Below are positions 3,796-34,083 of a stretch of DNA of 34,083 nt, piece by piece. The DNA is taken from contig JBHLLP010000037.1 in assembly GCA_048885525.1 (NCBI GenBank), positions 1 to 34,083 on the forward strand, written 5' to 3'. This stretch comes from Candidatus Hermodarchaeota archaeon. GTDB lineage: Archaea > Asgardarchaeota > Lokiarchaeia > Sigyniarchaeales > SOKP01. Both the position numbers and the translations under genes were made by a program. The number at the start of each line of letters is the position of its first letter. Positions within the stretch are counted from its first letter, which is position 1. The notes beneath the pieces were generated by a model that worked only from the letters and a program-made list of their open reading frames with translations, made no database searches and was not told where the DNA came from.

Positions 3796-4926
3796 TTATT
3801 TATCTAATTCTCTAAATTTTTGGAGTAAATCCTTTTGCTTATCTGAAATTTTTCTAGGAATTTCAATATTTACTATTACATATTGATCTCCTCTTCCTCG
3901 CCCCCGCATATATGTTACCCCTCGATTTTTTATGCGAAACTCTGTTCCTGGTTGTGTTCCAGGAGGAATTGTCAGTTCTTTTTCTGTTAACTTCTTTTCT
4001 TTATAATCTAATGTAGGAACGTTTATTTTTCCTCCAATTATAGCAGTTACAACGTCTACATCCACGGGAGTATAAAGATCATTTCCACGTCGTATGAATT
4101 GTTCGTCACCAGTTATTCTGATTCCTAAATAAAGATCTCCGGGTATTGCGTTAACAGATGGTACATGCCCAGCCCCTTGAACTTTTAAATGAACCCCATC
4201 TTCAACACCTTCTGGAATCGAGACGTGAATTGTTTTCATTTCAGGGATTACTTTTTTTCCTCCACAGGTCTTACATTTTTTCTCAATTACTCTTCCCGTA
4301 CCATTACAACTGTAACATTCTGATTCTCTTATAATAGTTCCAAATCCGGATTGTGTCATTTTCCTAATCCGCCCTGAACCTTGACATTCTGGACAAGATT
4401 TTATACTTGAAGGATCCTCCGCACCTGTCCCTTCGCAATCATCACAAGGAGTATATCTTTCTATAGGAATATCCTTTTTGACACCAAACATCGCTTCCTC
4501 AAAAGTAATTTCTATATGATCTTCTAAATCTTGGCCAACTTCTCTACGTGGAGTACTACTTCTTCTAGCCCTTGTACCAAAACCACCAAAACCAAAATCA
4601 TCAAAACCACCAAAAGAACCAAAGCCGCCAAAAATACTCCGTAATAATTCATCGATTCCTGGAATACCGCCACGGAAAAAGTCACTCATATCAACATGTA
4701 CACCACTAAAACCAAATCTATCATAATTTTGTCTTTTCTCTTCATCACTTAAAACTTCATATGCTTCTTGGAGTTCAATAAATTTCTCCTTTGCATTTGG
4801 ATCAGTCTTATTTAAATCTGGATGTAACTTTCTGGCTAATCTTCGATACGCAAGTTTAATGTCATTTAAACTAGCATCTTTACTTACACCAAGCACTTCA
4901 TAGTAATCTCTTTTCTTAGAACTCAT
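3796..4926 (-). CDS. dnaJ: Chaperone DnaJ (class A)
   Basis: J-domain with HPD, G/F-rich linker, four CxxCxGxG-type repeats ([32 protein letters not shown]) and C-terminal domain; lies downstream of dnaK. Confidence 0.97.
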
Positions 4927-5181
4927 GATTCTTTAGTACCTTAGTATAATGAAATATATTTAAAACTCAAGTAAATAAAATTGTTTATAAAATTTAATTT
5001 TTTAGGTAATAGGCTATTAGATAGAATAATAGTAGAATCCTTTATAAATTAAAAGAGGTATTATATGAATTAAACAATTCTTCCTAATTCTTAATGAAAA
5101 GTCCTATAAATTATATCGAAGATAACGAAAAATATAAAAAAATAATGGAAAACAAGAAAAAATTATTTTGACTAGGTAGAC

Positions 5182-7191
5182 TTAATCTTCGTCCCAATCA
5201 ACATCTACAACTTTCTTTTTCTTCTCTTCTTCCTTTTCTTTTTTGTATGATGCACCACCAGCACCAGATTCACCTGGTGGAACGCCACCCATACCACCCG
5301 GAGGGACACCTCCTGGGGGAGCACCCCCCATACCACTTGCAGCACGCTGAGCTTGTTCAGCTGCTTGTTGGTATACTTGATCTTGAGCTTGAGCCTGATA
5401 AATCCTCTGGGAAAAGCTATACATAGACTTCTGCAGATTTTCGATACCTAACTTAATTCTTTGTACATCATCCGTTTTAATATCTTCTTCTAATGATGCG
5501 ATAGCTGCTTCAATTGCTTTCTTTTCATTTTCTTGAATCTTGTCTTTATTATCCTCCATTAATTTCCGGGTTTGATAAATCATCGAATCAGCATTATTTT
5601 TAGCTTCAACTAATTCTCTAACTTTCTTATCTTCCTCTTCAAATTGTTCTGCTGTTTGAACTTTTTCTTTAATCTCTTCTGGAGTTAAGCCTTGAGCGCC
5701 AGTAACAGTGATTCCAGTTTGTTTTCCTGTTCCCAAATCTTTCGCAGTTACATGTACAATACCATCAGCATCTATTGAAAATTTTACTTCGATCTGTGGT
5801 ATACCTCGAGGCGCAGGTGGAATACCAGTTAAATGAAACATTCCTAAAGAGATATTATCTTTAGCCATAGCTCTCTCTCCTTGGAGAACGTTTATAGTAA
5901 CTGCAGGTTGATTATCTGCTGCTGTACTGAACACTTGACTTTTTTCAGTCGGTATTGTACTATTTCGTTCAATTAGTTTGGTGAATACACCACCTAAAGT
6001 CTCAACTCCTAATGAAAGTGGAGTGACATCAAGAAGTAATAGATCTTCCACATCTCCAGCAATAACACCACCTTGGATTGATGCTCCAATAGCAACACAT
6101 TCCATTGGATCAACTGAATGTTCGGGTTCTTTTCCACCAAAAAATTTCTTAAATCTTTGTTGGACAGATGGCATTCTTGTTGGACCGCCAACTAAAATCA
6201 CTTTGTCAACATTATTAGGTGCTAATTTCGCATCTGAAATTGCTCTTTGCATAATGGGATCAAGCCGTCTGAGAGTAGGTTCTATTAAAGATTCTAATTT
6301 TGCTCTTGTGAGTTCCATGGTTAAATGAACAGGATTACCCCCTTTTTGTGAAATGTAAGGTAAATTTATAGTAGTGGATAAAGTCGTGGATAATTCTATT
6401 TTCGCTTTTTCAGCTGCGTCTTTAATTCTTATCCATGCTTTACTGTCACCCTTTAAATCGATTCCTTCTTTCTTTTTAAATTCTTCAGTTACCCAATCAA
6501 TTATTTGGTTATCCATATCGGTTCCGCCCAACTGGGTATCTCCTGCCGTGGATAGGACCTCTACAACACCCTCTCCATACTCCATAATCGTTATATCGAA
6601 AGTACCGCCCCCTAAGTCTAATACGCAAATCTTCATTAGTTTATCTTTAGTATCTTTATCTAAACCATAAGCCAAACACGCTGCAGTTGGTTCATTAATC
6701 ATTCGCACAACTTCGAGTCCAGCAATTTCTCCAGCATTCTTTGTAGCAGTCCTCTGGGCGTCATTAAAATAGGCAGGAACGGTTATTACTGCTTTTTCAA
6801 CGTCCTCTCCTAAATATGCCGATGCATCAGTTTTAATTTTCTTTAATATCATAGCACTTATTTCTTCAGGAGAAAATTCTTGCCATTTATCTCCCACTTT
6901 CAATTTTGCTTTATAAGACGTTCCCATTTTACGTTTAATAGCGGTAACTGTACCATCTGGATTTGAAACAGCTTGTCTTCGAGCTGGTTCACCAACTATT
7001 TTACGTCCGTTCTCATCAAATGCTACATATGAAGGAAATGCCTTTCCTCCAAGAGTTCTGCCTTCTGCAGCTGGTACTATCTCAGGTTTACCAGTTCCAG
7101 TTAGAACTGCGCAAGCACTATTAGAAGTTCCAAGATCTATTCCGATTATCTTTTCTTTTCTTTTTGGTTTTTCAGTTTTTTCTTCACTCAT
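5182..7191 (-). CDS. dnaK: Chaperone DnaK (Hsp70)
   Basis: [41 protein letters not shown] linker, [12 protein letters not shown]. Confidence 0.98.
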
Positions 7192-7430
7192 AGTCCTCTC
7201 ATCTTCTTATCTTGGATTTATTTGTATTTATACTATTAATTTTGAATGATTTTCTAGAATATAATAATTTAATTCTTTTAAATTGTAAATTTACTATTGT
7301 AAGGTAATTTATGAATATATAAAATTTTTATGATATATGCTTCTTTAAAAAGATAGTAAAATTATTTCTAATAATTAGATAATGAAATATTGAATTAAAC
7401 AAAAATTTAGAATAATAAGAGTTGAAAAAT

Positions 7431-8264
7431 ATGTATATTGATTGTCATGCGCATATATTTTTTACTCCAATTCCTTCTGAAGCTATTGAAAAGGATATAA
7501 TAGGCGAGATACCCTCTCCTACTATGAATTTTATAAGTAGAATGATTTCTAACGCAAACAAGAAGGGTGTAGATTACATTGTTGGAATTATAAGTAATCC
7601 TAACGATTTCCCTTGGTACCGTAAACAATTGGAGCTTAAAAATATAATAAATGTTATAGGCATTCAAAGAAGAAAAGCTCTTGAAGACCATTCATATTTG
7701 ATGTCGCTATTGAAAAAAGAAATTGAAAGGAAAATGCCTCATGCAATAGGCGAGATTGGATTGGATTATGTATATGGTTTTGAAAGGTTGGGTGGGCATG
7801 AAAAAAACACGATCAAGAAAAAACAGCAGAAATTATTTAGAAAACAGATACGATTAGCAAAAGAATTAGATTTACCAATCGTAGTTCATGCAGGTTATCG
7901 CAATGATAAAGATATTGTAGAAGTATTAAAACAAGAAAAAACTCAAGACGTAGGAGGTCAAATTCATGGGTATATGTCTGATGTAGAATTAGTTTCCGAA
8001 CTGCTTGAAATGGGTTTTTATTTTTCTTTTGGATATAATCATTCAAGAGAGGAAGAATTAAAAAGAATAGTTAAAATCACTCCATTGGAACAAATACTTA
8101 CTGAAACGGATGCTCCATTTCATTTGATGGAAACTCCGAAACGATTTATACTTCCTGAAGATATTATTTTGATAAACGAAGAGATTGCTCGTTTAAAGGA
8201 GATTGACCTAGAAACTTTTACACTTCAGATAATGAGAAACGCTAGAGATCTTTTTAAATTTTAG
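7431..8264 (+). CDS. tatD: TatD family hydrolase/nuclease
   Basis: IDCHAH, IGEIGLDY, PIVVH, QIH and LTETDAP. ATG at 7431 is preferred over TTG at 7422. Confidence 0.88.
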   Translation: MYIDCHAHIFFTPIPSEAIEKDIIGEIPSPTMNFISRMISNANKKGVDYIVGIISNPNDFPWYRKQLELKNIINVIGIQRRKALEDHSYLMSLLKKEIERKMPHAIGEIGLDYVYGFERLGGHEKNTIKKKQQKLFRKQIRLAKELDLPIVVHAGYRNDKDIVEVLKQEKTQDVGGQIHGYMSDVELVSELLEMGFYFSFGYNHSREEELKRIVKITPLEQILTETDAPFHLMETPKRFILPEDIILINEEIARLKEIDLETFTLQIMRNARDLFKF

Positions 8265-8462
8265 ATTAAAATCGATTTTTATCATATAATTTTGGAAGAC
8301 AGTTATTATCATACTAATTATTAGTATTATATTAATTTATAATTATTAATTATCTAAGTGAGACTGATTCTAGGCAAATCATTTATAAAGATCTCTAAGT
8401 CATAAAATTAAAAAAAGTGTATCTATTTTAAAACATATATCTTCATTTCTTTAAATTTAATT

Positions 8463-9296
8463 ATGAATTCAAAGGGACCTGATATGGAAGACAGTAATGA
8501 CAATGATATAAAAGAAGGTGTCGAGCAAGATATATCTTCTGATAGTAAGACAGCAGAACAAAAAGAAAATATAGAAAGTGAAATAGTAAGTGAAGAAGTA
8601 AAAAAATTAGAAGAAAAAGAGCATTATGAATTAGATTATTTTTCTAAAGAAGATTTAGTCAAGGAAAAGGAAAATCTTGAGCAAAAGATAAAAGACTTAA
8701 AAGAAAAAACTGAGAAATTACAGAAAGAAAATGGTGAGTCAAGGAATAAATTCATGCATCTCCAGGCTGAATTTGAAAATGCACAAAAGAGATGGGATAA
8801 AAATCGACAAAATCTGAGAATTGAGTATACAGCATCGGTTTTAAAGAATTTCTTACCTTTATATGACTCATTTAAAAAAGCTCTTGAGAGTGCGAATGAA
8901 ACGGAAAAAAAAATCATCGAAGGCTTTTACAACCAATTTATGAATATATTCAAATCATATGGTGTAGAACCGATAAAAGTAGAAATAAACGATGAGTTTG
9001 ATTACAGTATTCATGAAGCTTTAACCTCGGTTGAAAAAGAAGATGTTCCAGAGAATAAAGTGCTTGAAATAGTCCAAGATGGCTTCAAATATGGAAAAGA
9101 AGTAATCCGTTATACTAAAGTTATCATATCAAGAAAACCAAAACCTCCCAAACCAGAACCCGAAGAAAAAGAGGCTGAAGAAGAAGTATCTGAAGAAAAA
9201 ACAACAGAGGAAGAAATACCTGAATATCAAGAAAAACAAGTAAAAGAAAAAAAACATAAAAAGCAAAAGAAAGAAAAAGATAAGGAAAGTTCATAA
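8463..9296 (+). CDS. grpE: Nucleotide exchange factor GrpE with long charged N- and C-terminal extensions
   Basis: Coiled coil followed by LQAEFEN..KR, FLPLYDSF, FDYSIHEAL, EIVQDGF...VIR..KV; near dnaK/dnaJ. Confidence 0.93.
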   Translation: MNSKGPDMEDSNDNDIKEGVEQDISSDSKTAEQKENIESEIVSEEVKKLEEKEHYELDYFSKEDLVKEKENLEQKIKDLKEKTEKLQKENGESRNKFMHLQAEFENAQKRWDKNRQNLRIEYTASVLKNFLPLYDSFKKALESANETEKKIIEGFYNQFMNIFKSYGVEPIKVEINDEFDYSIHEALTSVEKEDVPENKVLEIVQDGFKYGKEVIRYTKVIISRKPKPPKPEPEEKEAEEEVSEEKTTEEEIPEYQEKQVKEKKHKKQKKEKDKESS

Positions 9297-10427: not shown

Positions 10428-11423
10428 TTACTTCTCAAGTCCTAGCATTTTTATTATTAAATTTGCCATAGAATAAGGATCAAGTGATTTCTGAATGGCT
10501 TGATCAATATACTTCTCAATTTCTTTATCAGATTTAAGTAATTCTTCAACCTTTTGCGTTAATTTATGTTTTAAAATCTGCATAGTTTCATTAGTTATTC
10601 TATTTTTCATATAATTCGAAATAACACCTGATTCTTCTAAGAATGATTTATGCTTTTTTATTAATTCAAGAAGCTCGTTAAAATTCTCTCCAGTTTTAGA
10701 GTTTACTTTAGTAATTTCTGGTATCCATAGTTCTATCTTAGCATATTTTTTATGTATTTCATTTGAATCATACTTATAATTTTTTCTGAATTCTAACATT
10801 TGCTGTATTTCAGCAATTTTCTTATCTGCTCCTGGTAAATCCATTTTATTTACAACAAAGACATCTGTAATTTCCATGATACCCGATTTTATGGCCTGAA
10901 TATCATCTCCTAATCCTGGGACTAATAAGACGACAACTGTTTGTGCAGATTTAAAGATATCCACTTCAGATTGTCCAACGCCTACCGTCTCAACAATTAT
11001 TATGTCACATCCATAAGCATCAAGGATTTTAATTACATCTTCTGTAGCTCTTGCCAGCCCTCCAAGTTGACCCCTATTTGCCATACTTCTAATAAAAACG
11101 TTATTAAGTGAGAAATTTTGTTTCATACGGATCCTATCTCCTAAGAGAGCACCACCAGTCAAAGGAGACGTTGGATCGACGCAAATAATCCCTACTTTTT
11201 TCCCTTGATCAACATAGAATTTAGTTAATGTTGAAATAAACGTTGATTTACCTGTACCTGGTGCTCCTGTTATCCCTAAGATGTATGCATTACCTGTATG
11301 TTCATAAATAGAATTAACTATTTCTTCAGCAACATCAATATCATTCTCTACAAAAGTAATTAAACGTGCAGCAGCTCTAGGATTTCCTTTTAGTAATTCA
11401 GAAATAAAATTAGAATAATCCAT
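10428..11423 (-). CDS. meaB: Acyl-CoA mutase-associated GTPase MeaB/ArgK
   Basis: GITGAPGTGKST, VDPTSPLTGGALLGDRIRM, VETVGVGQSE, GDDIQAIKSGIME, NKMD. ATG 11423 lies just after the stop of the B12-binding subunit. Confidence 0.95.
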   Translation of the reverse strand: MDYSNFISELLKGNPRAAARLITFVENDIDVAEEIVNSIYEHTGNAYILGITGAPGTGKSTFISTLTKFYVDQGKKVGIICVDPTSPLTGGALLGDRIRMKQNFSLNNVFIRSMANRGQLGGLARATEDVIKILDAYGCDIIIVETVGVGQSEVDIFKSAQTVVVLLVPGLGDDIQAIKSGIMEITDVFVVNKMDLPGADKKIAEIQQMLEFRKNYKYDSNEIHKKYAKIELWIPEITKVNSKTGENFNELLELIKKHKSFLEESGVISNYMKNRITNETMQILKHKLTQKVEELLKSDKEIEKYIDQAIQKSLDPYSMANLIIKMLGLEK

Positions 11424-11430
11424 TCTATTA

Positions 11431-11832
11431 CTATCTTTCCAAGTTGTTTTTAACAAATTCGACTATCGTTTTAAGATCGGTCCCAGGACCATAAAATCCT
11501 TTTAACCCGTGTTTTTCTAAAAATATTTTATCTTCATCTGGTATAATCCCTCCCACAGCTACAAGAACATCATCTATGCCATGTTCCTTGAGTTTATCCA
11601 TGATTACAGGACATAATGCATTGTGTGCCCCAGATAACATACTTAACATTACAGCATCTGGATCTTCTTGAATAACAGTATTTACAACGTCATCTGGAGT
11701 TTGGTGTATTCCCGTATAAATAACTTCCATTCCAGCATCTCTTAATGCTCTCGCTAAAACTTTGGCTCCTCTGTCATGCCCGTCAAGCCCGGGCTTACAA
11801 ACCAGAACCTTTATTTTTCTTCCTTCAGTCAT
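11431..11832 (-). CDS. Cobalamin-binding small subunit of acyl-CoA mutase
   Basis: KPGLDGHDRGAKV (DxHxxG), SMLSGAH, VGGIIP. Confidence 0.95.
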   Translation of the reverse strand: MTEGRKIKVLVCKPGLDGHDRGAKVLARALRDAGMEVIYTGIHQTPDDVVNTVIQEDPDAVMLSMLSGAHNALCPVIMDKLKEHGIDDVLVAVGGIIPDEDKIFLEKHGLKGFYGPGTDLKTIVEFVKNNLER

Positions 11833-11932
11833 GTTCTATTTTTAATACAATAAATTTGTAAAATTAAATAATTAATATGTATTTTAAAATATTTGAATAA
11901 AATTATATTTTCTGTTCTAAATTTTAAAACAA

Positions 11933-12769
11933 TTGGTGATTAAAATTCCAATTTTTAAGTACGATGATATTGAAATTAATTATATTAAGGAAGGTATAGG
12001 AGAACCTCTAGTTTTAATTCAAGGTTCGAATACAAGATTAGAAGCGTGGAATTATCAAATAGACTTTTTCAAAGAAAGAATGACTATTATAGCTTTTGAT
12101 AATCGAGGTGCAGGAAAAAGCTCTCGACCAGATTATCCTTATACAATGGACATGTATGTTGAGGATACTAAAAACCTTCTCAATTACTTGAATATTAAAG
12201 AAAAAATACATCTCTGTGGAATTAGTTTGGGTGGAGAAATAGCTCAAGAATTTATTTTAAAATATCCTGAAAGAGTTAAAACGCTTATTTTAATAGCAAC
12301 GGAACCAAATGTGGATCCTACAAAATTCAGTCAAACAATTAAAGTATATCATGAGATGGACAAAATGAATTTTGACCAAAAATTCCAGTTAATTTTTCCG
12401 ATATTATATACTAATACATTTAAAAGAAAACTAAGAAAAGATGAAGAATTAATGGAAAAACTTAAAAAAGAAATGAACTTCATGTTTGCAATTGAATATG
12501 GACCTAAATTAAAGGATTTAATTAATCAATTTAAAGCATTAGCAGATTTCAATACAATCGATTCTTTACATAAAATTATTCAACCTACTTTAATCTTAGT
12601 AGGTTCTAAGGATATTAGAAATCCCCCTGAGAGATCTAAATTAATTCATGAAAAAATTTCGAATTCAAAATTAGAAATCCTTGAAAATTTGAAGCATGGT
12701 TTAACAATAGAAGCTCCAGAGATAGTTAATAATGCGATTTGGAATTTTATAAAAGAAAATCTTAGATGA
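11933..12769 (+). CDS. Alpha/beta hydrolase (PcaD/MenH-like family); true start may be ATT 11945
   Basis: FDNRGAGKS, GISLGG nucleophile elbow, PTLILVG..D, LKHG. Confidence 0.88.
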   Translation: MVIKIPIFKYDDIEINYIKEGIGEPLVLIQGSNTRLEAWNYQIDFFKERMTIIAFDNRGAGKSSRPDYPYTMDMYVEDTKNLLNYLNIKEKIHLCGISLGGEIAQEFILKYPERVKTLILIATEPNVDPTKFSQTIKVYHEMDKMNFDQKFQLIFPILYTNTFKRKLRKDEELMEKLKKEMNFMFAIEYGPKLKDLINQFKALADFNTIDSLHKIIQPTLILVGSKDIRNPPERSKLIHEKISNSKLEILENLKHGLTIEAPEIVNNAIWNFIKENLR

Positions 12770-12819
12770 AAAATGAATAGTAAATAATTCTCTTTTCATA
12801 AATATTTTTTATTCAGTCT

Positions 12820-14475
12820 TCAGAAAATTGAATCTTCATGATAAGTACCAAATACTTCTTTTAAAGCATTTATAATTTCTCCAATAGATGTATATTCTCT
12901 AACTGCATCTATAATAAAAGGCATTAGATTTTCTGTACCTCTAGCTGCTTCTTTAAGTCTTTCAAGTTTTTCCTGTACTTTTTCATTATTTCGTTCTTCT
13001 TTTAGTTTATTGAGTTTTCTAATTTGTTCTCTTGCGACTTCTTCATCAATTTTTAAAAGTGGAACTGAACATGGTTCTCTTTGCTCAAATTCATTTACAG
13101 CTACAATGGTTCTCTCTCTATTCTCGATTTCTTGCTGATATTTATAAGATGCATTAGCGATTTCTTTTTGAAAGAAATTTGCTTTTATTGCTGGTACGAC
13201 ACCTCCAAGATCTTCAATCCTTTTAAAATAATCTTCTGCTTCTTCTTCCATCTTATTGGTGAGCCATTCCACATAATAAGAACCTGCTAATGGATCAACG
13301 GTATCAGTTACGCCTGATTCATGGGCAATGATTTGTTGAGTTCTTAAAGCTATTTTTACAGCATTTTCCGTTGGAAGACATAAAGCTTCGTCAAATGAAT
13401 TAGTATGTAGAGACTGGGTTCCTCCAAGAACAGATGCTAATGCTTGTATTGTAACTCTAGCGATATTATTTTCGGGTTCTTGAGCAGCTAATGAAACACC
13501 TGCAGTTTGAGTATGAAAACGTAATCGCATTGATTCTGGCTTTTTTGCTCCATATCTATTTTTCATATGTCTAGCCCAAATCCGTCTAGCAGCTCGATAC
13601 TTACAAATTTCCTCGAAAAAATTATTATGAGAATTGAAGAAAAAGGACAAACGAGGCGCAAAATCATCAATATCTAAACCTCTTTCGAGAGCAGCTTCTA
13701 CATAAGCAAATCCATCTGCTAATGTAAATGCTAATTCTTGAACTGCTGTGGATCCAGCTTCCCTTATATGATATCCACTAATACTAATTGTATACCATTG
13801 AGGTACATGTTTAGTGCAATACTCAATTGTATCAACAATAATCCGCATAGAAGGTTCTGGAGGAAAAATCCATGATTTTTGGGCAATATATTCTTTTAAA
13901 ATATCATTTTGAATAGTTCCTCTTAATTGGTCTGGAGTATGCCCTTGCTTTTCAGCAGTCACAATATATAGAGCCAACAGTATTGAAGCAGGACCATTTA
14001 TAGTCATAGAAGTACTTATTTTTGAAAGATCTATACCGTCAAATAAGATTTCCATATCTTTTAGAGAGTCTATTGCGACACCCTCTTTTCCAATTTCTCC
14101 TAAAGCTTTCGGATCGGTTGCTTCAATTCCATAAATAGTATGTAAGCTGAAAGCAACACTTAATCCAGTATTACCATGATCAATTAAAAATTTATATCTT
14201 TCATTAGTTTGTTCTGCATTTCCAAATCCTGCGAATTGACGCATTGTCCATAATTGACCTCTGTACATGTTTGGATATGCCCCTCGAGTAAATGGATATT
14301 GTCCTGGAAATCCTAAATCAAGAGCATAACTAAAATCTTTGATATCATTAGGAGTATATAATCTTTTAATTTCAATTTCAGATAAATTCCTGAAACTTTG
14401 TTTTCTTTCTTTTTTTAATGAAATGGAATTCTCCCATTCTTCCATTTCCTGTTTAATTTTATCATATTCAGTCAT
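12820..14475 (-). CDS. B12-dependent acyl-CoA mutase large subunit (methylmalonyl-CoA mutase family; isobutyryl-CoA-mutase-like specificity residues)
   Basis: PGQYPFTRG, WTMRQFAGFG, GTIQNDILKEYIAQ, SISGYHIREAG, RFHTQTAG, GGTQSLHTNSFDEA. Confidence 0.95.
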   Translation of the reverse strand: MTEYDKIKQEMEEWENSISLKKERKQSFRNLSEIEIKRLYTPNDIKDFSYALDLGFPGQYPFTRGAYPNMYRGQLWTMRQFAGFGNAEQTNERYKFLIDHGNTGLSVAFSLHTIYGIEATDPKALGEIGKEGVAIDSLKDMEILFDGIDLSKISTSMTINGPASILLALYIVTAEKQGHTPDQLRGTIQNDILKEYIAQKSWIFPPEPSMRIIVDTIEYCTKHVPQWYTISISGYHIREAGSTAVQELAFTLADGFAYVEAALERGLDIDDFAPRLSFFFNSHNNFFEEICKYRAARRIWARHMKNRYGAKKPESMRLRFHTQTAGVSLAAQEPENNIARVTIQALASVLGGTQSLHTNSFDEALCLPTENAVKIALRTQQIIAHESGVTDTVDPLAGSYYVEWLTNKMEEEAEDYFKRIEDLGGVVPAIKANFFQKEIANASYKYQQEIENRERTIVAVNEFEQREPCSVPLLKIDEEVAREQIRKLNKLKEERNNEKVQEKLERLKEAARGTENLMPFIIDAVREYTSIGEIINALKEVFGTYHEDSIF

Positions 14476-25704: not shown

Positions 25705-26964
25705 TTAATTTGTGAAAATATCTTTTAGTTCATCGGGAATTTCATCAGATTCATCCATTAAAGAGAGTGCATATACAATTTCTCCACATTTACATTGTGT
25801 TCCTTCAAAGAGATAAAATTTGAATTGATCTTTCCAATTACATATTTGAACATTACTTATTTCTGCAACCTCACCGCATACACAAAAAATTGCCATAGTT
25901 TCCGAATAATTAGGTATAATTTCTGTGAAATCTTTCTGAGCCTTACTAAATTCAGAGTTATTTAACATGTCATTAATCTTTTCAGCGTATTTATCTTTAA
26001 GCGTTGGAACGAAATAATTGATGATTCCATCTTTGCCTTTCATATCTGAAAGTGTAATAAAATTCCTCTCTACTTTCTCTTCTTTCTTTTTTCTCGAAAT
26101 TATAGGTTGTTGATATTGCTGAAGTTGCTGTGGGATAGGAAATGGTTCTACATCTGCTGGGTATTCGAAGGTATAAAAGTATTGCATTGATCCTCTTATA
26201 TTCTTTTGATTCAATAATGTTAAGTTCTCATAATCTCTACTATGGAGCATAAATTTTATTAACTGAAGAGGCACTCTTAATTCGATCAGTCTAGATCTAA
26301 TATTATCTAATAATTCACCAGCAAAATTCTTTAAAATCATAATATCTTCTCTATTTTCAGAATAAATCTGATTTTTGTTTTGCTCTTTAAACGCAAACCA
26401 TTTCTTAACAACATTGCCTTTAACTAATTGAGGCACCATACAAAAGACACATAGTATGGGAAAGAGAAAAAAAACATTTATCGGTAAAAAAGCCAAAATA
26501 AAGACAAGTACAAATAACGGTAATGTAATTAGTAATGTTAATTTTCGTAGACGTTTATCCATTGAACCTTTTATACCTTTACTAAGAGCAATTTCCTCTG
26601 CTTTAAGTTTTAATTTATTAACAATATCAATGATTCCTTTTGATTCGAAGCTCTGTTGTAAAATTCTATCCTCTTCTCTTCCACTACTAAAATTGTCTAT
26701 ATGTGTTGTAATTTGTTTTATGTACTGGTTTAAAGTGCTATCCTTAAAGATGAAATCTAAAGTTTCTTCTGAGAAATAGTCTAAAAAGCGTACTATAAAG
26801 AGTTTTTTCTCAACATCTTGAATATCTGTTGGACCCAAACCAAGCGCTTCTTGAATCATCTGACCTTGAGTTTTTCTTGATTGTTTCCTTCGCTTTCTCT
26901 TTTTTTCCTCTTTATTCTCTGAACTCTCAGATTTTATCTTTTCATTATTTTCACTGTTTTTCAT
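25705..26964 (-). CDS. Hypothetical membrane protein: basic N-terminus, central TM hairpin, C-terminal CxCG...CxCG putative Zn ribbon
   Basis: 419-aa ORF with KKRKRRKQSRK, LTLLITLPLFVLVFILAFLPINVFFLFPILCVFCMVP and FCVCGE...QCKCGE. Confidence 0.75.
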   Translation of the reverse strand: MKNSENNEKIKSESSENKEEKKRKRRKQSRKTQGQMIQEALGLGPTDIQDVEKKLFIVRFLDYFSEETLDFIFKDSTLNQYIKQITTHIDNFSSGREEDRILQQSFESKGIIDIVNKLKLKAEEIALSKGIKGSMDKRLRKLTLLITLPLFVLVFILAFLPINVFFLFPILCVFCMVPQLVKGNVVKKWFAFKEQNKNQIYSENREDIMILKNFAGELLDNIRSRLIELRVPLQLIKFMLHSRDYENLTLLNQKNIRGSMQYFYTFEYPADVEPFPIPQQLQQYQQPIISRKKKEEKVERNFITLSDMKGKDGIINYFVPTLKDKYAEKINDMLNNSEFSKAQKDFTEIIPNYSETMAIFCVCGEVAEISNVQICNWKDQFKFYLFEGTQCKCGEIVYALSLMDESDEIPDELKDIFTN

Positions 26965-27310: not shown

Positions 27311-27580
27311 GTGAAAATAACCATTAGGATATCGGTAGAAGACTCTCGCACTGGAAAGTTAATTAAGCTAGATGTTAAAAATCATCATCAGATTGAAAGA
27401 ATAGTTGATATTATCATAAAACATATGGGTATTATAAGTGCGGAACAACGTTCCTATAGTTTAGTTCTTAAAGATCAAGAGCTACCTAGCACAATAACAA
27501 TAGAGGACGCTATTCATAAATTTGGTTTACAGGAGAATGATAAGTTGGTACTTTGGGCTAAAGTTATAGGGGGTTGTTAA
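27311..27580 (+). CDS. Ubiquitin-like (beta-grasp) protein ending in Gly-Gly-Cys
   Basis: 89 aa. Beta-hairpin start (ITIRISVEDSRTGKLIKLDV), helix, YSLVLKDQEL...TI....GLQEND.LVL and C-terminal VIGGC (GGG GGT TGT TAA); next to E1, E2 and JAMM genes. Confidence 0.85.
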   Translation: MKITIRISVEDSRTGKLIKLDVKNHHQIERIVDIIIKHMGIISAEQRSYSLVLKDQELPSTITIEDAIHKFGLQENDKLVLWAKVIGGC

Positions 27581-27607: not shown

Positions 27608-28192
27608 TTAATCATCAATAATTATAACATCCTCATCTATTTCCTCTTTTTCCTCGATTTCTTCAGCAGTAATTTTGAGTTCTTCCTTTATATTTTCCAT
27701 GGATTTCTTTTTAAATAATTCTGCAGCCTCTAAACAAATTGCATAATTAAGTGGATCATCAGGATTTGGATTTTCTATTAAATTTTTAAGAGCTTTAATC
27801 GTTGTTTCTAAATCAGATAATCGTGACCATTTCTTCAAGACATTTAGACAAATATATCCAGTACCTAAAACCCCTGGAGCAATTTGAACTGGATGAATAT
27901 TTGGATGAAATATATTCGTTATCCAAGAAAAATCAATTCCACCAGGATAGGGAAAAGAACGATTTATTTTCAAAAAAACTTGGTGAGATCTTTGTGGCGT
28001 TAATTCTCCTTTATTCTGGATAATTCCTAATGCATTTATATTTATTGTAAATTCAATACTCGTATCGCCCTTAATAATAGAATTTTCTTCTAACACCCTT
28101 AACTTTTTAATATTATTTAGTTCATTTTCAATTCTGTCCTTCCAAATCTCAAATGGTAACTCTGGCAATTCTTTTTCAACCTCTCTCCTCAA
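27608..28192 (-). CDS. Ubiquitin-conjugating enzyme E2-like
   Basis: SFPY, ITNIFHPNI, GYICLNVLKKWS (catalytic Cys) and NPNPDDPLN..AA; acidic C-terminal tail; TTG start. Confidence 0.93.
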   Translation of the reverse strand: MRREVEKELPELPFEIWKDRIENELNNIKKLRVLEENSIIKGDTSIEFTININALGIIQNKGELTPQRSHQVFLKINRSFPYPGGIDFSWITNIFHPNIHPVQIAPGVLGTGYICLNVLKKWSRLSDLETTIKALKNLIENPNPDDPLNYAICLEAAELFKKKSMENIKEELKITAEEIEEKEEIDEDVIIIDD

Positions 28193-28275: not shown

Positions 28276-29160
28276 TCAATTTTTCTTTTCGTATGAACAT
28301 GTCCAACAATCTGGGTTCTTCAGTTTCTCAACAACCCTAAATTTATTCAATAGTCCATTATAATTTAACTGTTTACCAATCAGAGGTTTACCTATAGACG
28401 AATTCCAATTACCATGTTCTTTAAAATATTCAATACCTAAAACAAATTTCAGTACTTGTTGTGATTGTAGACCTCCAATAATAGAAGTTGTTGTTATAAT
28501 TGTTGCTATCTTCGCAATTGTTTCACCATTTTCACTCTGAATTTCTTCACCTGTACATGAAAATTTTTTCCACATTAAATCTAAATCAGCATTGGATATA
28601 CTGCATTGTAAACAAGCTGCATCTTTTTCTTTAGAATAAACTGCTTGAACACTACCAAAAAATTCTTCAATTCCAGAATCCACAAAAGGAACTTGGTAAT
28701 AGTAAGCATAATTATTTGCTTGTAATCTAGCCTCAACATTGTCAAGACATGAACATATGACATCAGATTTTTGATACAGAGTTTTATCAATATCATTTAA
28801 ATCCTTTTTAATAGCTACAATTTCTGTATCAGGATTTAATTCTTCACAGGCATTTTTTACTACATCCACTTTATAATCTTTATTTTGAGCACTTTGGCTA
28901 TTAAATAACACACAGCGATTTAAATTTGAAATATTTATGAAATCATAGTCAACTAATATTAATTTTCCAATACCAGTTAACACCAAATTCTTCACAACCT
29001 CATTCCCAGTAGCACCTACACCGATAACCATAACTGTTGCGTTTGAAATTTTATTTTGATCCCAACCCTTAATACGTTTTTGACGATCAAATTTATCCGA
29101 GTCTATTGACTCAAAACCATAGACTTTATAATCCTTATTTTTTTGTTCTTTACTTGGCAT
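28276..29160 (-). CDS. Ubiquitin-activating enzyme E1-like (ThiF family adenylyltransferase)
   Basis: FDRQ, VIGVGATG, VDYD.I.ISNLNR, K, CLDNVEAR, CLQC, putative catalytic FSCT and CWTC. Confidence 0.92.
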   Translation of the reverse strand: MPSKEQKNKDYKVYGFESIDSDKFDRQKRIKGWDQNKISNATVMVIGVGATGNEVVKNLVLTGIGKLILVDYDFINISNLNRCVLFNSQSAQNKDYKVDVVKNACEELNPDTEIVAIKKDLNDIDKTLYQKSDVICSCLDNVEARLQANNYAYYYQVPFVDSGIEEFFGSVQAVYSKEKDAACLQCSISNADLDLMWKKFSCTGEEIQSENGETIAKIATIITTTSIIGGLQSQQVLKFVLGIEYFKEHGNWNSSIGKPLIGKQLNYNGLLNKFRVVEKLKNPDCWTCSYEKKN

Positions 29161-29178: not shown

Positions 29179-29676
29179 TCAATTTATATTTATATTAAGA
29201 ATCGCATAACTAACTTCTTTATAACCCTTTTCTGAACTTTTGTCTAATGTAAAAAATTGAAAGTTATCATTTACGGGATCAACAACTAAAGCTACTTGGT
29301 ATGATTCAGGGAAGAAAAATTCTTGAGTTTTTACATCCGTTGGAGATAGAAAACATCCAAAGCCTGGATGACTGTGCCACCACCCAACAACTCTTAAACT
29401 ATCATCTTCTCTTTTTCTTTTTAATCTTTGAAATTTTTTTTCATATTTACCCGCAGTTCCCTCTATTTGAGATGTTGAATATTTATCACTATGGATTGCG
29501 CCTATAAGGAAAAGAAGTTCTTTAATTCTAATATATATTTTTTCATTCCATTTCAAGATATTACCTATTAGGTATCCAAAAATTTCATTTTGAATATTCT
29601 TGCATAATAATTTAATTTTAACTAAAACATCTTGATTAACATATATAGGAAATATATAATTTTTTTCTAATGTCAT
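29179..29676 (-). CDS. JAMM/MPN+ metalloprotease (Rpn11/AMSH-like deubiquitinase or Ubl-processing protease)
   Basis: EIFGYLIG (catalytic Glu), [19 protein letters not shown] (HxH-x7-S-x2-D) and ALVVDP. Confidence 0.93.
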
Positions 29677-29729: not shown

Positions 29730-30608
29730 TTAACCTTTTTTCATAATCGCATTCTCTAATATCTTCTTGATTATTTGTTCAATATTCCCTCTAGCAGCTT
29801 CTTGAATGGCAGAAAATCCAAACGTTTGTAACCCACCAAATGATTCACTAATTTTCTCAGTGTCAAATGCAGAATTTATAGAATCTTGAAAATTTGCAAA
29901 AATATAAAATATTTTATTTTTTATTCTTTCCTTTAGATGAGAATATAAATTCTTTGTTCGGCTTAAATTGTCTGCCCCTGAGTTTGTAACCATACAAATT
30001 ATGTCTACAGTATCAATAAGGGATTTATATTTAGTGATATTATCTATTAAATCTTTGAAATTGATTTCTATTAACACAAACTCATTAATTCCTTTTATAT
30101 CAGATAGTTTAATAGTTTTTTTAACAAGTTCAGTCATATCGTCATCTAATTCTAATATAGTCTCTCCTGGAAATAAATTCATAATTGTACTTTTTCCAAC
30201 CCCATCTTCACCAATCAATAGGATTTTAGGAGTAAGAACTAAGTGTTTTTCAATAAATTGGTCGAACATTTCATATTTTTCATTTTCACCTATCCCTTTT
30301 TCTAATCCCTTTATAAATATTTTGAAATATTCCTCTTTTAATAGTTTCAATTTAACTCTTGCTTCTTCTTCAAGATCATGACTATCTGTAGTAATAATAA
30401 ATACATAATCGTGATTACCATAATCATAAATAAAATTAAAATTCTCAAAATTTAATGAACTTATATTTCCTCCACCAATCTTTTTGCTTACACGAGTTAT
30501 AAGAGTTAAAAAGCTTATGATATCTTTACTTGAATTGGTGGAACCAAAAATTGATTTTGAATAGCGTACTACCCCATCTGTTGTAATAATATAAATATTG
30601 GATATCAT
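29730..30608 (-). CDS. Longin-like domain fused to an atypical small GTPase (Arf/Rab-like), paralog A
   Basis: N-terminal MISNIYIITTDGVVRYSK...IGGGNISSLNF longin-like pattern; KILLIGEDGVGKSTI P-loop; FANFQD (G4-like); FSAI (G5-like). Confidence 0.8.
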   Translation of the reverse strand: MISNIYIITTDGVVRYSKSIFGSTNSSKDIISFLTLITRVSKKIGGGNISSLNFENFNFIYDYGNHDYVFIITTDSHDLEEEARVKLKLLKEEYFKIFIKGLEKGIGENEKYEMFDQFIEKHLVLTPKILLIGEDGVGKSTIMNLFPGETILELDDDMTELVKKTIKLSDIKGINEFVLIEINFKDLIDNITKYKSLIDTVDIICMVTNSGADNLSRTKNLYSHLKERIKNKIFYIFANFQDSINSAFDTEKISESFGGLQTFGFSAIQEAARGNIEQIIKKILENAIMKKG

Positions 30609-30744
30609 AGCAGAATTCTAATTTTCTTAACCACTAAAGAAAATCCTTTTTCAACTTTAATTTTTTATCTGTTTTTTTATAAATATATGTAATATATACT
30701 CTTAAACAATCGATATCTAATCTTTTTCTCCTTTAATCTATAAT

Positions 30745-31644
30745 TTATTTTACTTGTTTGCTTTCTATTTTTTCTACAATTGAAATTCTTACTATTTCAC
30801 TAATAATCTCAAAAATCCTTTCCTTGGCTTCCTTTTTAATTGCACAGAAACCATATGTTTGAATACCAAATAATTCTTGTATTTTTTCTGGTTCATAAGA
30901 TGTATTTTGTAAATCCTGAAAATTTGCAATAACATAAAAGTCTGCTTTCTTGACTTTTTTCTCTAATTGTGAAAAGAGTCTTTGAGTTCTACCTAAATTG
31001 CTTGCCCCAGAGTTAGTGACAATGCAAATTATATCGACTGAATCTAATAATGGTCGATAAATTTTTGCATTTTTAATGAGATCTTCTAAATCAAGTTCTC
31101 GTAATATTACTTCATTTATTCTTTTAAAATTTGTTAACGGGACTGTTTTCTGTATGATTTCGTTTAAATCTTCATCAAGCTCTAGAACAGTGTCCCCTTC
31201 AAATAAGTTGATAATAGTCGTTTTCCCGACACCTAGCTCGCCTACCAATAATATTTTCGGGGGTATGAAAATTCTGTTTTCTGTGAATTCATCAAATACT
31301 TCAAATCTTCCTGTTTCACATTTGAAATCTTTTAAGTCATCATAAAATCGTTTGATAAACTCATTTTTTAATAATTCTAACTTATCTTGTGCCTCTTCTT
31401 CAGGGTCATCAATATCTGTAACAATAATAAACATACATAGCTTTTCATCATCATAAGTATATATAAAATTGAAATTTCTGAAGTTTAATGATCTTATTTC
31501 TCCTCCACCAATTTCTTTTGCAATACTACTAATTGCTGTAAGGAATCCGCCCACTAAATCGTAATCCATGTTATCACTTCCAATAAATGTCCTTGAATAA
31601 CAGAGTACACCATTAGCCATTATTATAAGTATTTTAGATATCAT
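30745..31644 (-). CDS. Longin-like domain fused to an atypical small GTPase, paralog B
   Basis: MISKILIIMANGVLCYS...DLVGGFLTAISSIAKEIGGGEIRSLNF; KILLVGELGVGKTTI; IANFQD; FCAI; colinear with paralog A. Confidence 0.82.
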   Translation of the reverse strand: MISKILIIMANGVLCYSRTFIGSDNMDYDLVGGFLTAISSIAKEIGGGEIRSLNFRNFNFIYTYDDEKLCMFIIVTDIDDPEEEAQDKLELLKNEFIKRFYDDLKDFKCETGRFEVFDEFTENRIFIPPKILLVGELGVGKTTIINLFEGDTVLELDEDLNEIIQKTVPLTNFKRINEVILRELDLEDLIKNAKIYRPLLDSVDIICIVTNSGASNLGRTQRLFSQLEKKVKKADFYVIANFQDLQNTSYEPEKIQELFGIQTYGFCAIKKEAKERIFEIISEIVRISIVEKIESKQVK

Positions 31645-32078: not shown

Positions 32079-32306
32079 TTAGGCAACATTTACAACATGT
32101 GTAACTTCTGGAATAAACTGTTTAAGAGCTCTCTCCACCCCAAAAGTCAGCGTTTGTTGTGCATGCATACATCCCGCGCAATGGCCCATTAATCTTACTT
32201 TAACGGTTCCATCGTCCTCTACACTAACAAGTTCGATATCGCCGCCATCCATTTGTAATTGAGGCCTAATTTTATCAATAACTTGCTTTACTTTTTCTAC
32301 GTCCAT
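32079..32306 (-). CDS. NifU/Nfu-type Fe-S cluster carrier
   Basis: IRPQLQMDGGDIELV....V.VRL.GHCAGC....TL..GVE..L. ATG 32306 is preferred over GTG 32315. Confidence 0.93.
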   Translation of the reverse strand: MDVEKVKQVIDKIRPQLQMDGGDIELVSVEDDGTVKVRLMGHCAGCMHAQQTLTFGVERALKQFIPEVTHVVNVA

Positions 32307-32470
32307 TAATTTCACTTAATAATATTTTGTAAATTCTATAATAAAAAAAAGACAAATACCCTTTTAAAGGATTCCTTTTATATTTTATTAATATTTCTCA
32401 AATAGAGTTATTATAATAACGTAATCAAATTATAGATCTTTTATAGTTAAATTTTTTTCTCATATTTAAT

Positions 32471-33419: not shown

Positions 33420-33797
33420 ATGGATGCCACAGAATTTATTAAAAAGCTGAATGAAGTTCAAGAACTAATGAGACAAGAAAATTACAAACAGGCAATTGCT
33501 TTAATTGAAAAACTGAAAGAATTAGAAAAAAAGGGCAACTTTGATTATAATCTTACTCACAGATTATACCAATTAGATTCAAATTGTCGTTCCCTTAATA
33601 ATCAACAAATTCTCTTAAAAATAATGAAGGATCTTTCTAGCGAGAATGATCACATTAGTTTTTACGAATTGAATAAAATTTTAAAGAAAAATCATGAGCT
33701 AGACCTTAACGAACATATTTTAAAAAGAGAAATTGAAATTCTAATATTAAGAAATCTTTTAACTTGTAGAATAGATGGAGATACACTCATTTTTTAA
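33420..33797 (+). CDS. Hypothetical protein, helical N-terminus plus winged-helix (PCI-like) C-terminus
   Basis: 125 aa; TPR-like helical hairpin, then ISFYEL...REIEILILRNLLTCRIDGDTLIF, resembling a PCI/winged-helix end. Confidence 0.65.
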   Translation: MDATEFIKKLNEVQELMRQENYKQAIALIEKLKELEKKGNFDYNLTHRLYQLDSNCRSLNNQQILLKIMKDLSSENDHISFYELNKILKKNHELDLNEHILKREIEILILRNLLTCRIDGDTLIF

Positions 33798-34083
33798 TTT
33801 TGTTCCTCTATCTCTGCAAGAAACAGGTCTACAATTGCTAACCATTTGTTTTTTGATTCAAAATCACTCATAATTTTAGTTGTTAATTCTTTTCCTCTCT
33901 TAAGATTTTGAACTGCTAATTCAAAATTTTCAAGTGCCGTATAGCAAATTCCTAATTTAATATAAGTCTGGTAGATAAACCAATCATTAGTATCAATTGC
34001 TATAGCGTTTTGGAATTCTTCTATGGCTTTTTCATACTCTTTAAAAGTGATTAAGATTTCTCCGTATGTATCGTGATAAATTC
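33794..34083 (-). CDS. TPR-containing protein, C-terminal part (5' end outside the window)
   Basis: Manual translation ...YHDTYGEILITFKEYEKAIEEFQNAIAID...YIKLGICYTALENFELAVQNL...EEQN*. The stop overlaps the stop of the convergent gene. Confidence 0.8.
   Translation of the reverse strand, partial: IYHDTYGEILITFKEYEKAIEEFQNAIAIDTNDWFIYQTYIKLGICYTALENFELAVQNLKRGKELTTKIMSDFESKNKWLAIVDLFLAEIEEQN

Follow-up and report, generated by a model that had tools for sequence, protein, structure and literature searches.

A longin-fused, probable pseudoGTPase family at the head of a ubiquitin-like conjugation operon in Lokiarchaeia

What is left for a small GTPase to do once it has kept its nucleotide-binding loop and lost the motifs by which such proteins switch, and why should two genes for such proteins stand at the head of a ubiquitin-like conjugation operon? 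The question is raised by a 34,083-nucleotide stretch of DNA from Candidatus Hermodarchaeota archaeon (Lokiarchaeia; assembly GCA_048885525.1, contig JBHLLP010000037.1, positions 1 to 34,083 of the forward strand), here called the window, in which two tandem paralogs, A and B, encode a longin domain fused to a degenerate G domain and are followed by genes for a JAB protease, an E1, an E2 and a ubiquitin-like modifier (Ubl). Small GTPases, longins and ubiquitin conjugation all belong to the eukaryote-like systems of Asgard archaea, and pairing them functionally is hard because their genes are mostly scattered; according to a survey of MK-D1 (PMC10933270), small GTPase genes generally do not share an operon with genes for roadblock, longin or TRAPPC3 proteins. 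The family to which A and B belong combines known parts in a way not yet described and is real and selected. Our reading, to which we assign a probability of about 0.55, is that it is a lineage-specific longin-pseudoGTPase of an accessory Ubl conjugation system of Lokiarchaeia and acts as a partner of the Ubl, either as an adaptor or as a substrate.

Longin-fused G domains without switch motifs

Paralog B (30745-31644, minus strand; 299 residues) is the distal and more conserved copy, with a longin domain at about residues 1-125 and a degenerate Arf-like G domain at residues 126-299. Paralog A (29730-30608, minus strand; 292 residues) has the same architecture, adjoins the JAB gene and evolves faster. 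The two are 50% identical over the whole length, and both open reading frames are intact. The P-loop (G1) is preserved as GEDGVGKST in A (30189-30212) and GELGVGKTT in B (its GELGVGKT at 31219-31242). The G2 Thr is absent from both, an acidic LELD(D/E)D stretch replacing the IPT motif that reads HIPT or YIPT in canonical relatives from the same genome. In B, whose residue numbering is used throughout, the acidic segment from switch I to β2 covers residues 150-166 (31147-31197) and includes the near-invariant D157 and K166. At the G3 position A reads VLIEINFKDL and B reads ILRELDLEDL, where RELDLE (31084-31101) replaces WDFAGQ; the acid is retained as Glu183 at the former G3 Asp site, followed by Asp or Asn at 185, and the missing residues are the Gly and the catalytic Gln. 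Both proteins read ANFQD at G4 (NFQD at 29883-29894 in A and at 30913-30924 in B, from an ancestral NKQD), and G5 is SA in A and CA in B. A first-pass annotation of the window, made from its letters, had listed these G1, G3, G4 and G5 motifs and the acidic stretch, and all of them are present in both paralogs.

An AlphaFold2 model built from a 105-sequence alignment has a mean predicted local distance difference test score (pLDDT) of 86.6 and a predicted template modelling score of 0.84. Its N-terminal topology, as assigned by DSSP, follows the longin order of two strands, a helix, three strands and two helices, without the N-terminal helix of roadblock domains. In structural alignment (VIA), residues 1-129 match a CPLANE chain (7q3d_C; Z 14.2, root mean square deviation 2.9, 126 aligned residues) and a TRAPP chain (3cue_A; Z 13.6), which bears out the longin assignment of the first-pass annotation; the Pfam match of the same domain to Fuz_longin_1 (E 0.0054) is below the cut-off. 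The G domain is closest to Arf1 (VIA; Z 17.2, root mean square deviation 2.8, 151 aligned residues), and its best structural matches by Foldseek and VIA are Arf1, Arl1 and Rabs. It closes the protein in the model, with no C-terminal roadblock domain. Switch I is modelled as a hairpin of strands 153-156 and 162-169, a form that recalls Arf-GDP, and a helix begins right after strand 178-185, at the site expected for the DxxG loop. A sequence search of solved structures gave a best E of only 0.097 (Rem1, Arf1 and Gem) and is uninformative alone. The nearest ESM Atlas cluster, with 376 members from Promethearchaeota and neither name nor function, is probably the family's own.

A homolog search returned 286 matches, the best 120 of them at 55-87% identity and the close ones labelled Promethearchaeota or Lokiarchaeota. 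The conservation tally covers 197 distinct G domains of the family, from Promethearchaeota (Lokiarchaeia). The P-loop is nearly invariant (G140 in 197/197, K141 in 196, Ser or Thr at 142 in 191), as are D157 (196/197), K166 (195/197), R182, S212 and N216; E183 is found in 178. At G4, N241 is kept in 194 sequences, Q243 in all 197 and D244 in 196, and the former Lys position holds Phe in 187, Tyr or Trp in three, Met in three, Lys in three basal members and Cys in one. Ser or Cys followed by Ala is found at G5 in about 180-188 sequences, the Ala itself in 180. None of the 197 has DxxG in the expected register, which by descent reads ExxL. The register of G3 may be set either by descent, on Glu183, or by the spacing to Tyr196, on Asp/Asn185; since basal members keep the preceding Trp, Glu183 is taken as the old G3 Asp by descent, and in the register shifted by two a Gly at 188 occurs in just two of the 197, with no conserved Gln. 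The replacement of G4 Lys and the loss of G3, whose conservation the first-pass annotation had proposed to check, are therefore family-wide, and deviations fixed across so many G domains are not due to chance or to a sequencing artefact. Ratios of non-synonymous to synonymous substitution (dN/dS, Nei-Gojobori) against orthologs are 0.08-0.13 for B and 0.12-0.29 for A (summarised as about 0.09 for B and 0.20-0.29 for A), lowest in A within the G domain; these values show that selection on the family is purifying, and A is the more relaxed copy.

The origin of the family was addressed with a quick maximum-likelihood tree (IQ-TREE) of 115 G domains, which has no eukaryotic references, leaves out five sequences that failed a G1 filter and carries supports from the Shimodaira-Hasegawa-like approximate likelihood ratio test (SH-aLRT) only. 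The G3-less proteins form one clade on a long stem (SH-aLRT 99), within which the NFQD proteins are nested (98), the NKQD and NMQD members of the sister family (f4) falling outside them. The clade joins canonical longin-NKQD proteins (94, in a tree made without published ArfL reference sequences) and is separate from same-genome Rag-type (HKxD/WDLGG) and Ras-like or RasL-type proteins. The basal members keep NKQD or NMQD, have already lost G2 and G3, and in some cases retain the Trp before G3. On this tree the family descends from ordinary longin-fused NKQD GTPases and not from Rags and, with the canonical proteins as outgroup, lost the G2 Thr and the G3 Gly and Gln first and the G4 Lys later. 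The host genome (3.58 Mb, 99% complete; the window is its contig C37) encodes canonical longin-GTPases at C5:91029-91898, C24:41250 and C66:5922 with IPT at G2, WDFAGQ at G3 and NKQD at G4, and NFQD is thus a one-residue change from the parent motif. Two canonical longin-GTPase relatives (P0144 and P0146) carry a C-terminal RING finger, a second and independent tie of this GTPase group to ubiquitin ligation.

A third NFQD paralog lies in the host genome at C27:729-1601 (minus strand), directly downstream of a gene for a winged-helix and tetratricopeptide-repeat (TPR) protein and facing an open reading frame with a C4C4 RING-like motif (C27:22-408). The three copies form one recent sub-clade (SH-aLRT 95), and the A/B tandem is a recent duplication. 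Among 400 Asgard genomes, in each of which five candidates were scored so that copy numbers are lower bounds, strong matches are limited to two families of one order; because of this confinement to a single Lokiarchaeal order, the family is a lineage invention and does not stand in the direct ancestry of a eukaryotic system. Its presence is patchy, at about half the family, with absences from several genomes that are 99-100% complete and pseudogenised copies in some others.

The ubiquitin-like operon and its association with the G domain

The strongest functional clue, missed by the first-pass annotation, is the link to the genes that follow the pair. The JAB/MPN deubiquitinase-like gene (29179-29676, minus strand; Pfam JAB, E 1.7e-12), with the motif HSHP...S..D, begins 53 nucleotides downstream of A. 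Another 18 nucleotides downstream lies the gene for the E1-like (ThiF) activating enzyme (28276-29160, minus strand; Pfam ThiF, E 7.8e-49) and, after a gap of 83 nucleotides, that of the E2 conjugating enzyme (27608-28192, minus strand; Pfam UQ_con, E 1.2e-11), which has an HPN motif and a conserved cysteine in GYIC. The Ubl gene (27311-27580, plus strand) is convergent on the E2 gene and encodes a ubiquitin-fold modifier ending in GG-C; its AlphaFold2 model (pLDDT 84.2) has ubiquitin, SUMO and Caldiarchaeum ubiquitin as best Foldseek matches (template modelling score about 0.7), and E10, D11 and R13 of its β1/β2 hairpin are invariant. The catalytic motifs of the operon enzymes are conserved. 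This is the third E2 system of the host genome, the others being at C16:59132-62555 and C47:10002-12692, the latter with a JAB gene of its own.

The arrangement recurs. A JAB gene follows a family gene in all 15 of the first loci. Of 75 JAB genes, 63 come immediately after a family gene, which is present as one copy in 47 cases, two in 11 and three in five; among the other 12, at least six are at or near contig ends, one more is preceded by the C-terminal portion of a long fusion, and in a few the family gene has genuinely been lost or relocated. Of the order's 154 genomes, 73 encode the family and 73 the JAB gene; 70 have both and 78 neither, and the E2 occurs in 73, the Ubl in 77.

The operon unit in the window contains no RING E3 gene. 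Many relatives encode, upstream of the Ubl gene and on its strand, multi-pass membrane proteins whose C-terminus bears a C4C4 RING-like motif (L005, L006, L011-L013, L046, L048, L059-L061, L076 and L098), and the host genome has several such proteins elsewhere, including the one adjoining the C27 paralog; their Pfam match to zf-C3HC4_3 is below the cut-off, and we regard them as candidate ligases.

Which part of the family protein carries the link can be seen from members of other architecture, among them fusions of longin, G domain, MIT/TPR and nitrilase, G-TIR and G-TPR proteins and further longin-less fusions. Longin-less members also head the operon (in G204, G213, G261 and G262), so the link is carried by the G domain and not by the longin. 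A convergent Ubl paralog of their own lies within 1.5 kb of 17 of the 24 longin-less members and, reciprocally, of the 30 Ubl genes without an adjacent E2 gene, 19 adjoin a family gene. When the enzymes are dropped, what stays together is the G domain and the Ubl.

It is known that ubiquitin-fold effectors bind Ras by the edge of the β1/β2 hairpin. The predicted complex of the G domain with the Ubl scored 0.43 against 0.00 for the best control, with contacts agreeing 100% between runs and a partner pLDDT of at least 81; the mark used admits 58 of 80 solved pairs and 2 of 110 mismatched ones, but at scores of up to 0.60 no more than seven of the solved pairs, together with both mismatches, so that the prediction lends weak support to an interaction.

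Several further observations concern these fused and free forms. Fusions of about 880 residues that join longin, switchless G domain, MIT/TPR-like helices and nitrilase (CN hydrolase) are encoded at L046:4778-7420, L047, L048, L059:10151-12766 and L060:6103-8718, near the Ubl system, and an N-terminal amidase role is conceivable for them. A switchless G domain is fused to TIR next to a Ubl gene at L056:10720-11676 and L074:4232-5122. Several Ubl paralogs distant from a JAB gene (L053, L054, L058, L067, L082, L084 and L085), and some operon Ubls too (L011-L013), end exactly at GG and therefore need no processing. Larger proteins with an N-terminal domain related to the Ubl are encoded at L086:2-1297 (431 residues) and L088:4911-6539 (542 residues).

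Winged-helix/TPR genes form a family of at least six copies in the host genome, one of them in the window at 33794-34083 (minus strand); elsewhere they often adjoin family genes or sit just upstream of the cassette Ubl (L001, L002, L004, L005, L053, L054, L057, L058, L074, L082, L084 and L087), and their products are possible regulators. The remaining genes of the window include one for a 419-residue protein with two predicted membrane helices, a C-terminal CxC...CxC and no Pfam match (25705-26964, minus strand), whose synteny with the operon is limited to close relatives, and a small NifU-like open reading frame upstream of B (32079-32315, minus strand) that is probably unrelated to the operon. 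Genes recognised by their sequence alone are dnaJ and dnaK (minus strand) and grpE (plus strand) with a TatD-like hydrolase gene between them (3796-9296), a MeaB-like GTPase gene (10428-11456) and those of methylmalonyl-CoA mutase subunits (11431-14475). A promoter and terminator scan with a bacterial model gave 42 sites against 34.6 ± 5.5 expected by chance and is uninformative.

A probable partner of the modifier and the alternatives

A fold retained together with a conserved loss of catalytic motifs is the pattern of a pseudoGTPase, and the family shows it. Because it is co-inherited with the Ubl system in about 70 related genomes, the protein is probably a partner of the Ubl tag and not a normal switch. 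It probably still binds guanine nucleotide as a structural cofactor, without hydrolysis or toggling of the Ras type: the nucleotide would be held via the intact P-loop and the Asn and Asp of G4, with an aromatic residue in place of the base-packing Lys, and the γ-phosphate would be neither sensed nor hydrolysed in the usual way. The chances are close to even, though not quite, that the fixed acidic face of switch I and β2 (D157, K166 and R182) contacts the Ubl directly; the contact could be non-covalent, as between Ras and ubiquitin-fold effectors, or the family protein could be a preferred substrate with K166 as the acceptor. We propose only tentatively that the longin or the other fused domains (TIR, TPR/MIT, nitrilase) supply targets or location, with the membrane C4C4 RING-like proteins as candidate ligases. 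More speculative still is the complete scheme, in which the pseudoGTPase reads or carries a dedicated Ubl via its frozen switch-I/β2 edge, pairs of G domain and Ubl are multiplied as specificity modules, and the choice of targets falls to the fused domain (longin, TIR, TPR or nitrilase).

Several points weigh against a partnership of pseudoGTPase and Ubl. A few genomes (G227, G233, G237 and G248) keep the JAB, E1 and E2 genes with no family gene, or a truncated one, in front. The genomes counted are kin, and the co-occurrence is therefore one of shared inheritance and not of 70 separate events. In the sister family the unit comprises the longin-GTPase, JAB and usually E1; since its E2 and Ubl genes stand apart from it, the positional link reaches deepest for JAB and E1. 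Most cassettes of G domain and Ubl, though kept over two genera, fall in one or two clades and hence represent few events. The weak complex score may reflect mere likeness, because Ras-effector complexes with ubiquitin folds have already been solved. Finally, the acidic residues at the G3 site (E183 and D/N185) and in switch I (D159) could be relocated Mg ligands.

This last point underlies the main rival, which we consider unlikely: the protein would be an active GTPase with rewired chemistry, where E183, D185 or D159 as Mg ligands replace the G2 Thr and G3 Asp, the aromatic residue of G4 stacks on guanine, and hydrolysis occurs in trans, e.g., with the help of a ubiquitin-system partner. The nearly invariant GK[ST], the retained G3 acid and the aromatic residue (Phe, Tyr or Trp) that replaces the G4 Lys in 190 of the 197 sequences all agree with such an enzyme, and MglA-type GTPases do function with a non-standard G3. 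However, the G3 Gly is missing in either register together with any conserved Gln, basal members have Lys or Asn in place of Glu183, and five A-type proteins read GVGKK at G1, losing the Mg-binding Ser/Thr, while one reads GVGNT.

The first-pass annotation had suggested that A and B form a heterodimer through their longins, as Rags do through their roadblock domains. That such a dimer is obligate and explains the tandem now looks rather improbable. Longins commonly dimerise, MK-D1 longin- and roadblock-GTPase fusions were modelled as dimers (PMC10933270), the A/B tandem is kept in 16 operons, and the longin of A has diverged faster, with a one-residue deletion in helix 1. The idea is nevertheless weakened by the single copy in 47 of 63 operons, by the recent date of the duplication, by tandems of up to three genes, by the many members without a longin and by the position of the family outside the Rag-type clade. 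A facultative homo- or heterodimer of the longin-GTPases is quite possible.

An anti-virus or conflict module of the CBASS or Bil type, in which the G domain is a sensor or tag and the TIR and nitrilase fusions are effectors, is compatible with the partnership that we prefer and would fit the patchy presence, the duplications and the domain shuffling as well as the fusions themselves. As an account of the family it is improbable to a greater degree, for PADLOC gave generic E1/JAB and nitrilase matches alone, leaving the G domain, E2 and Ubl unmatched, the surrounding genes encode Rab-like GTPases, membrane RING-like proteins and housekeeping functions, and synteny is stable among close relatives.

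From the shared deviations the first-pass annotation had drawn selection for a non-canonical switch, a pseudoGTPase or an altered nucleotide specificity. The family-wide spread of the deviations and the purifying selection on them make the first two reasonable; specificity for ATP or another base, suggested by the replacement of the G4 Lys, is very unlikely, and we reject it because the residues that read the base are retained (G4 Asp and Asn and G5 Ala, in the numbers given above). That the copies are functionless duplicates in decay, as the relaxation of A and the pseudogenes of some genomes might hint, is rejected for the family as next to impossible, because dN/dS is far below 1 and about 190 sequences from two families share the same fixed substitutions.

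Significance and comparison with known systems

In the literature covered, which stops short of supplementary tables and subscription papers, we found no description of the switchless sub-family, of its place in a Ubl operon or of an archaeal pseudoGTPase family of this kind. The locus connects a longin-GTPase, through gene order and co-inheritance, with a Ubl module of five genes that lends itself to reconstitution in vitro from small soluble proteins, and it offers a stepwise natural history, in an archaeon, of how a GTPase became a probable pseudoenzyme, G2 and G3 first and the G4 Lys later. If the pseudoGTPase does read or carry the Ubl, this would be a prokaryotic system that couples a GTPase scaffold of the trafficking type directly to Ubl conjugation, and the scaffold could substitute for an E3.

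Among known proteins, the nearest are the longin- and roadblock-GTPase fusions of Asgard archaea, reported in the MK-D1 survey (PMC10933270) and the asCOG survey (10.1101/2020.10.19.343400). The longin fusions among them, which probably correspond to the ArfL group of Klinger et al. 2016 (discussed in 10.1101/2024.02.28.582541 and PMC11914678), share with our family the order of longin and then GTPase, the Arf-like fold and NxQD at G4, and are its sister group in the tree, the three canonical copies of the host genome among them; the known members keep the G2 Thr, WDxAGQ and NKQD, whereas the family does not. ArfR/AArf proteins are marked by Leu-Asp as the second and third residues of G1 and by Gly as the third of G3 (PMC11914678). 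Membership of that group was rejected: G1 position 2 is Glu and the G3 Gly is absent.

Rag/Gtr proteins (RagA-D, Gtr1/Gtr2 and the Asgard RagGtr) are likewise GTPases fused to a domain of the roadblock/longin superfamily, and dimerisation through that domain is conceivable in both cases. In contrast to Rags, whose G3 is intact, the family has the reversed domain order, with a longin at the N-terminus in place of a C-terminal roadblock, a G4 other than HKxD, a separate clade and mostly single copies, and we reject its assignment to the Rags.

Altered G2 and G3 motifs are a feature of Rnd and RGK proteins. Published accounts of eukaryotic pseudoGTPases (PMC10211241 and PMC12490416) include the N-terminal domain of p190RhoGAP, which binds GTP and does not hydrolyse it (PMC10211241). 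Like p190RhoGAP, Rnd and RGK, the family keeps the P-loop and guanine recognition, has lost the switch motifs and is likely an interaction platform. Unlike them, it has an independent archaeal, Arf-like origin, a longin fusion, an aromatic residue at the G4 Lys and a tie to a Ubl, and its status as a pseudoGTPase is read from sequence.

The conjugation module itself is best compared with the eukaryote-like ubiquitylation operon of Caldiarchaeum subterraneum (PMC5654768 and PMC6043591). Both units comprise a ubiquitin fold with a GG tail and a short C-terminal extension, an E1 of the ThiF type, a UBC E2 and a JAB protease. Unlike the Caldiarchaeum operon, the unit in the window has no small RING gene, carries its Ubl gene on the opposite strand and begins with a longin-pseudoGTPase.

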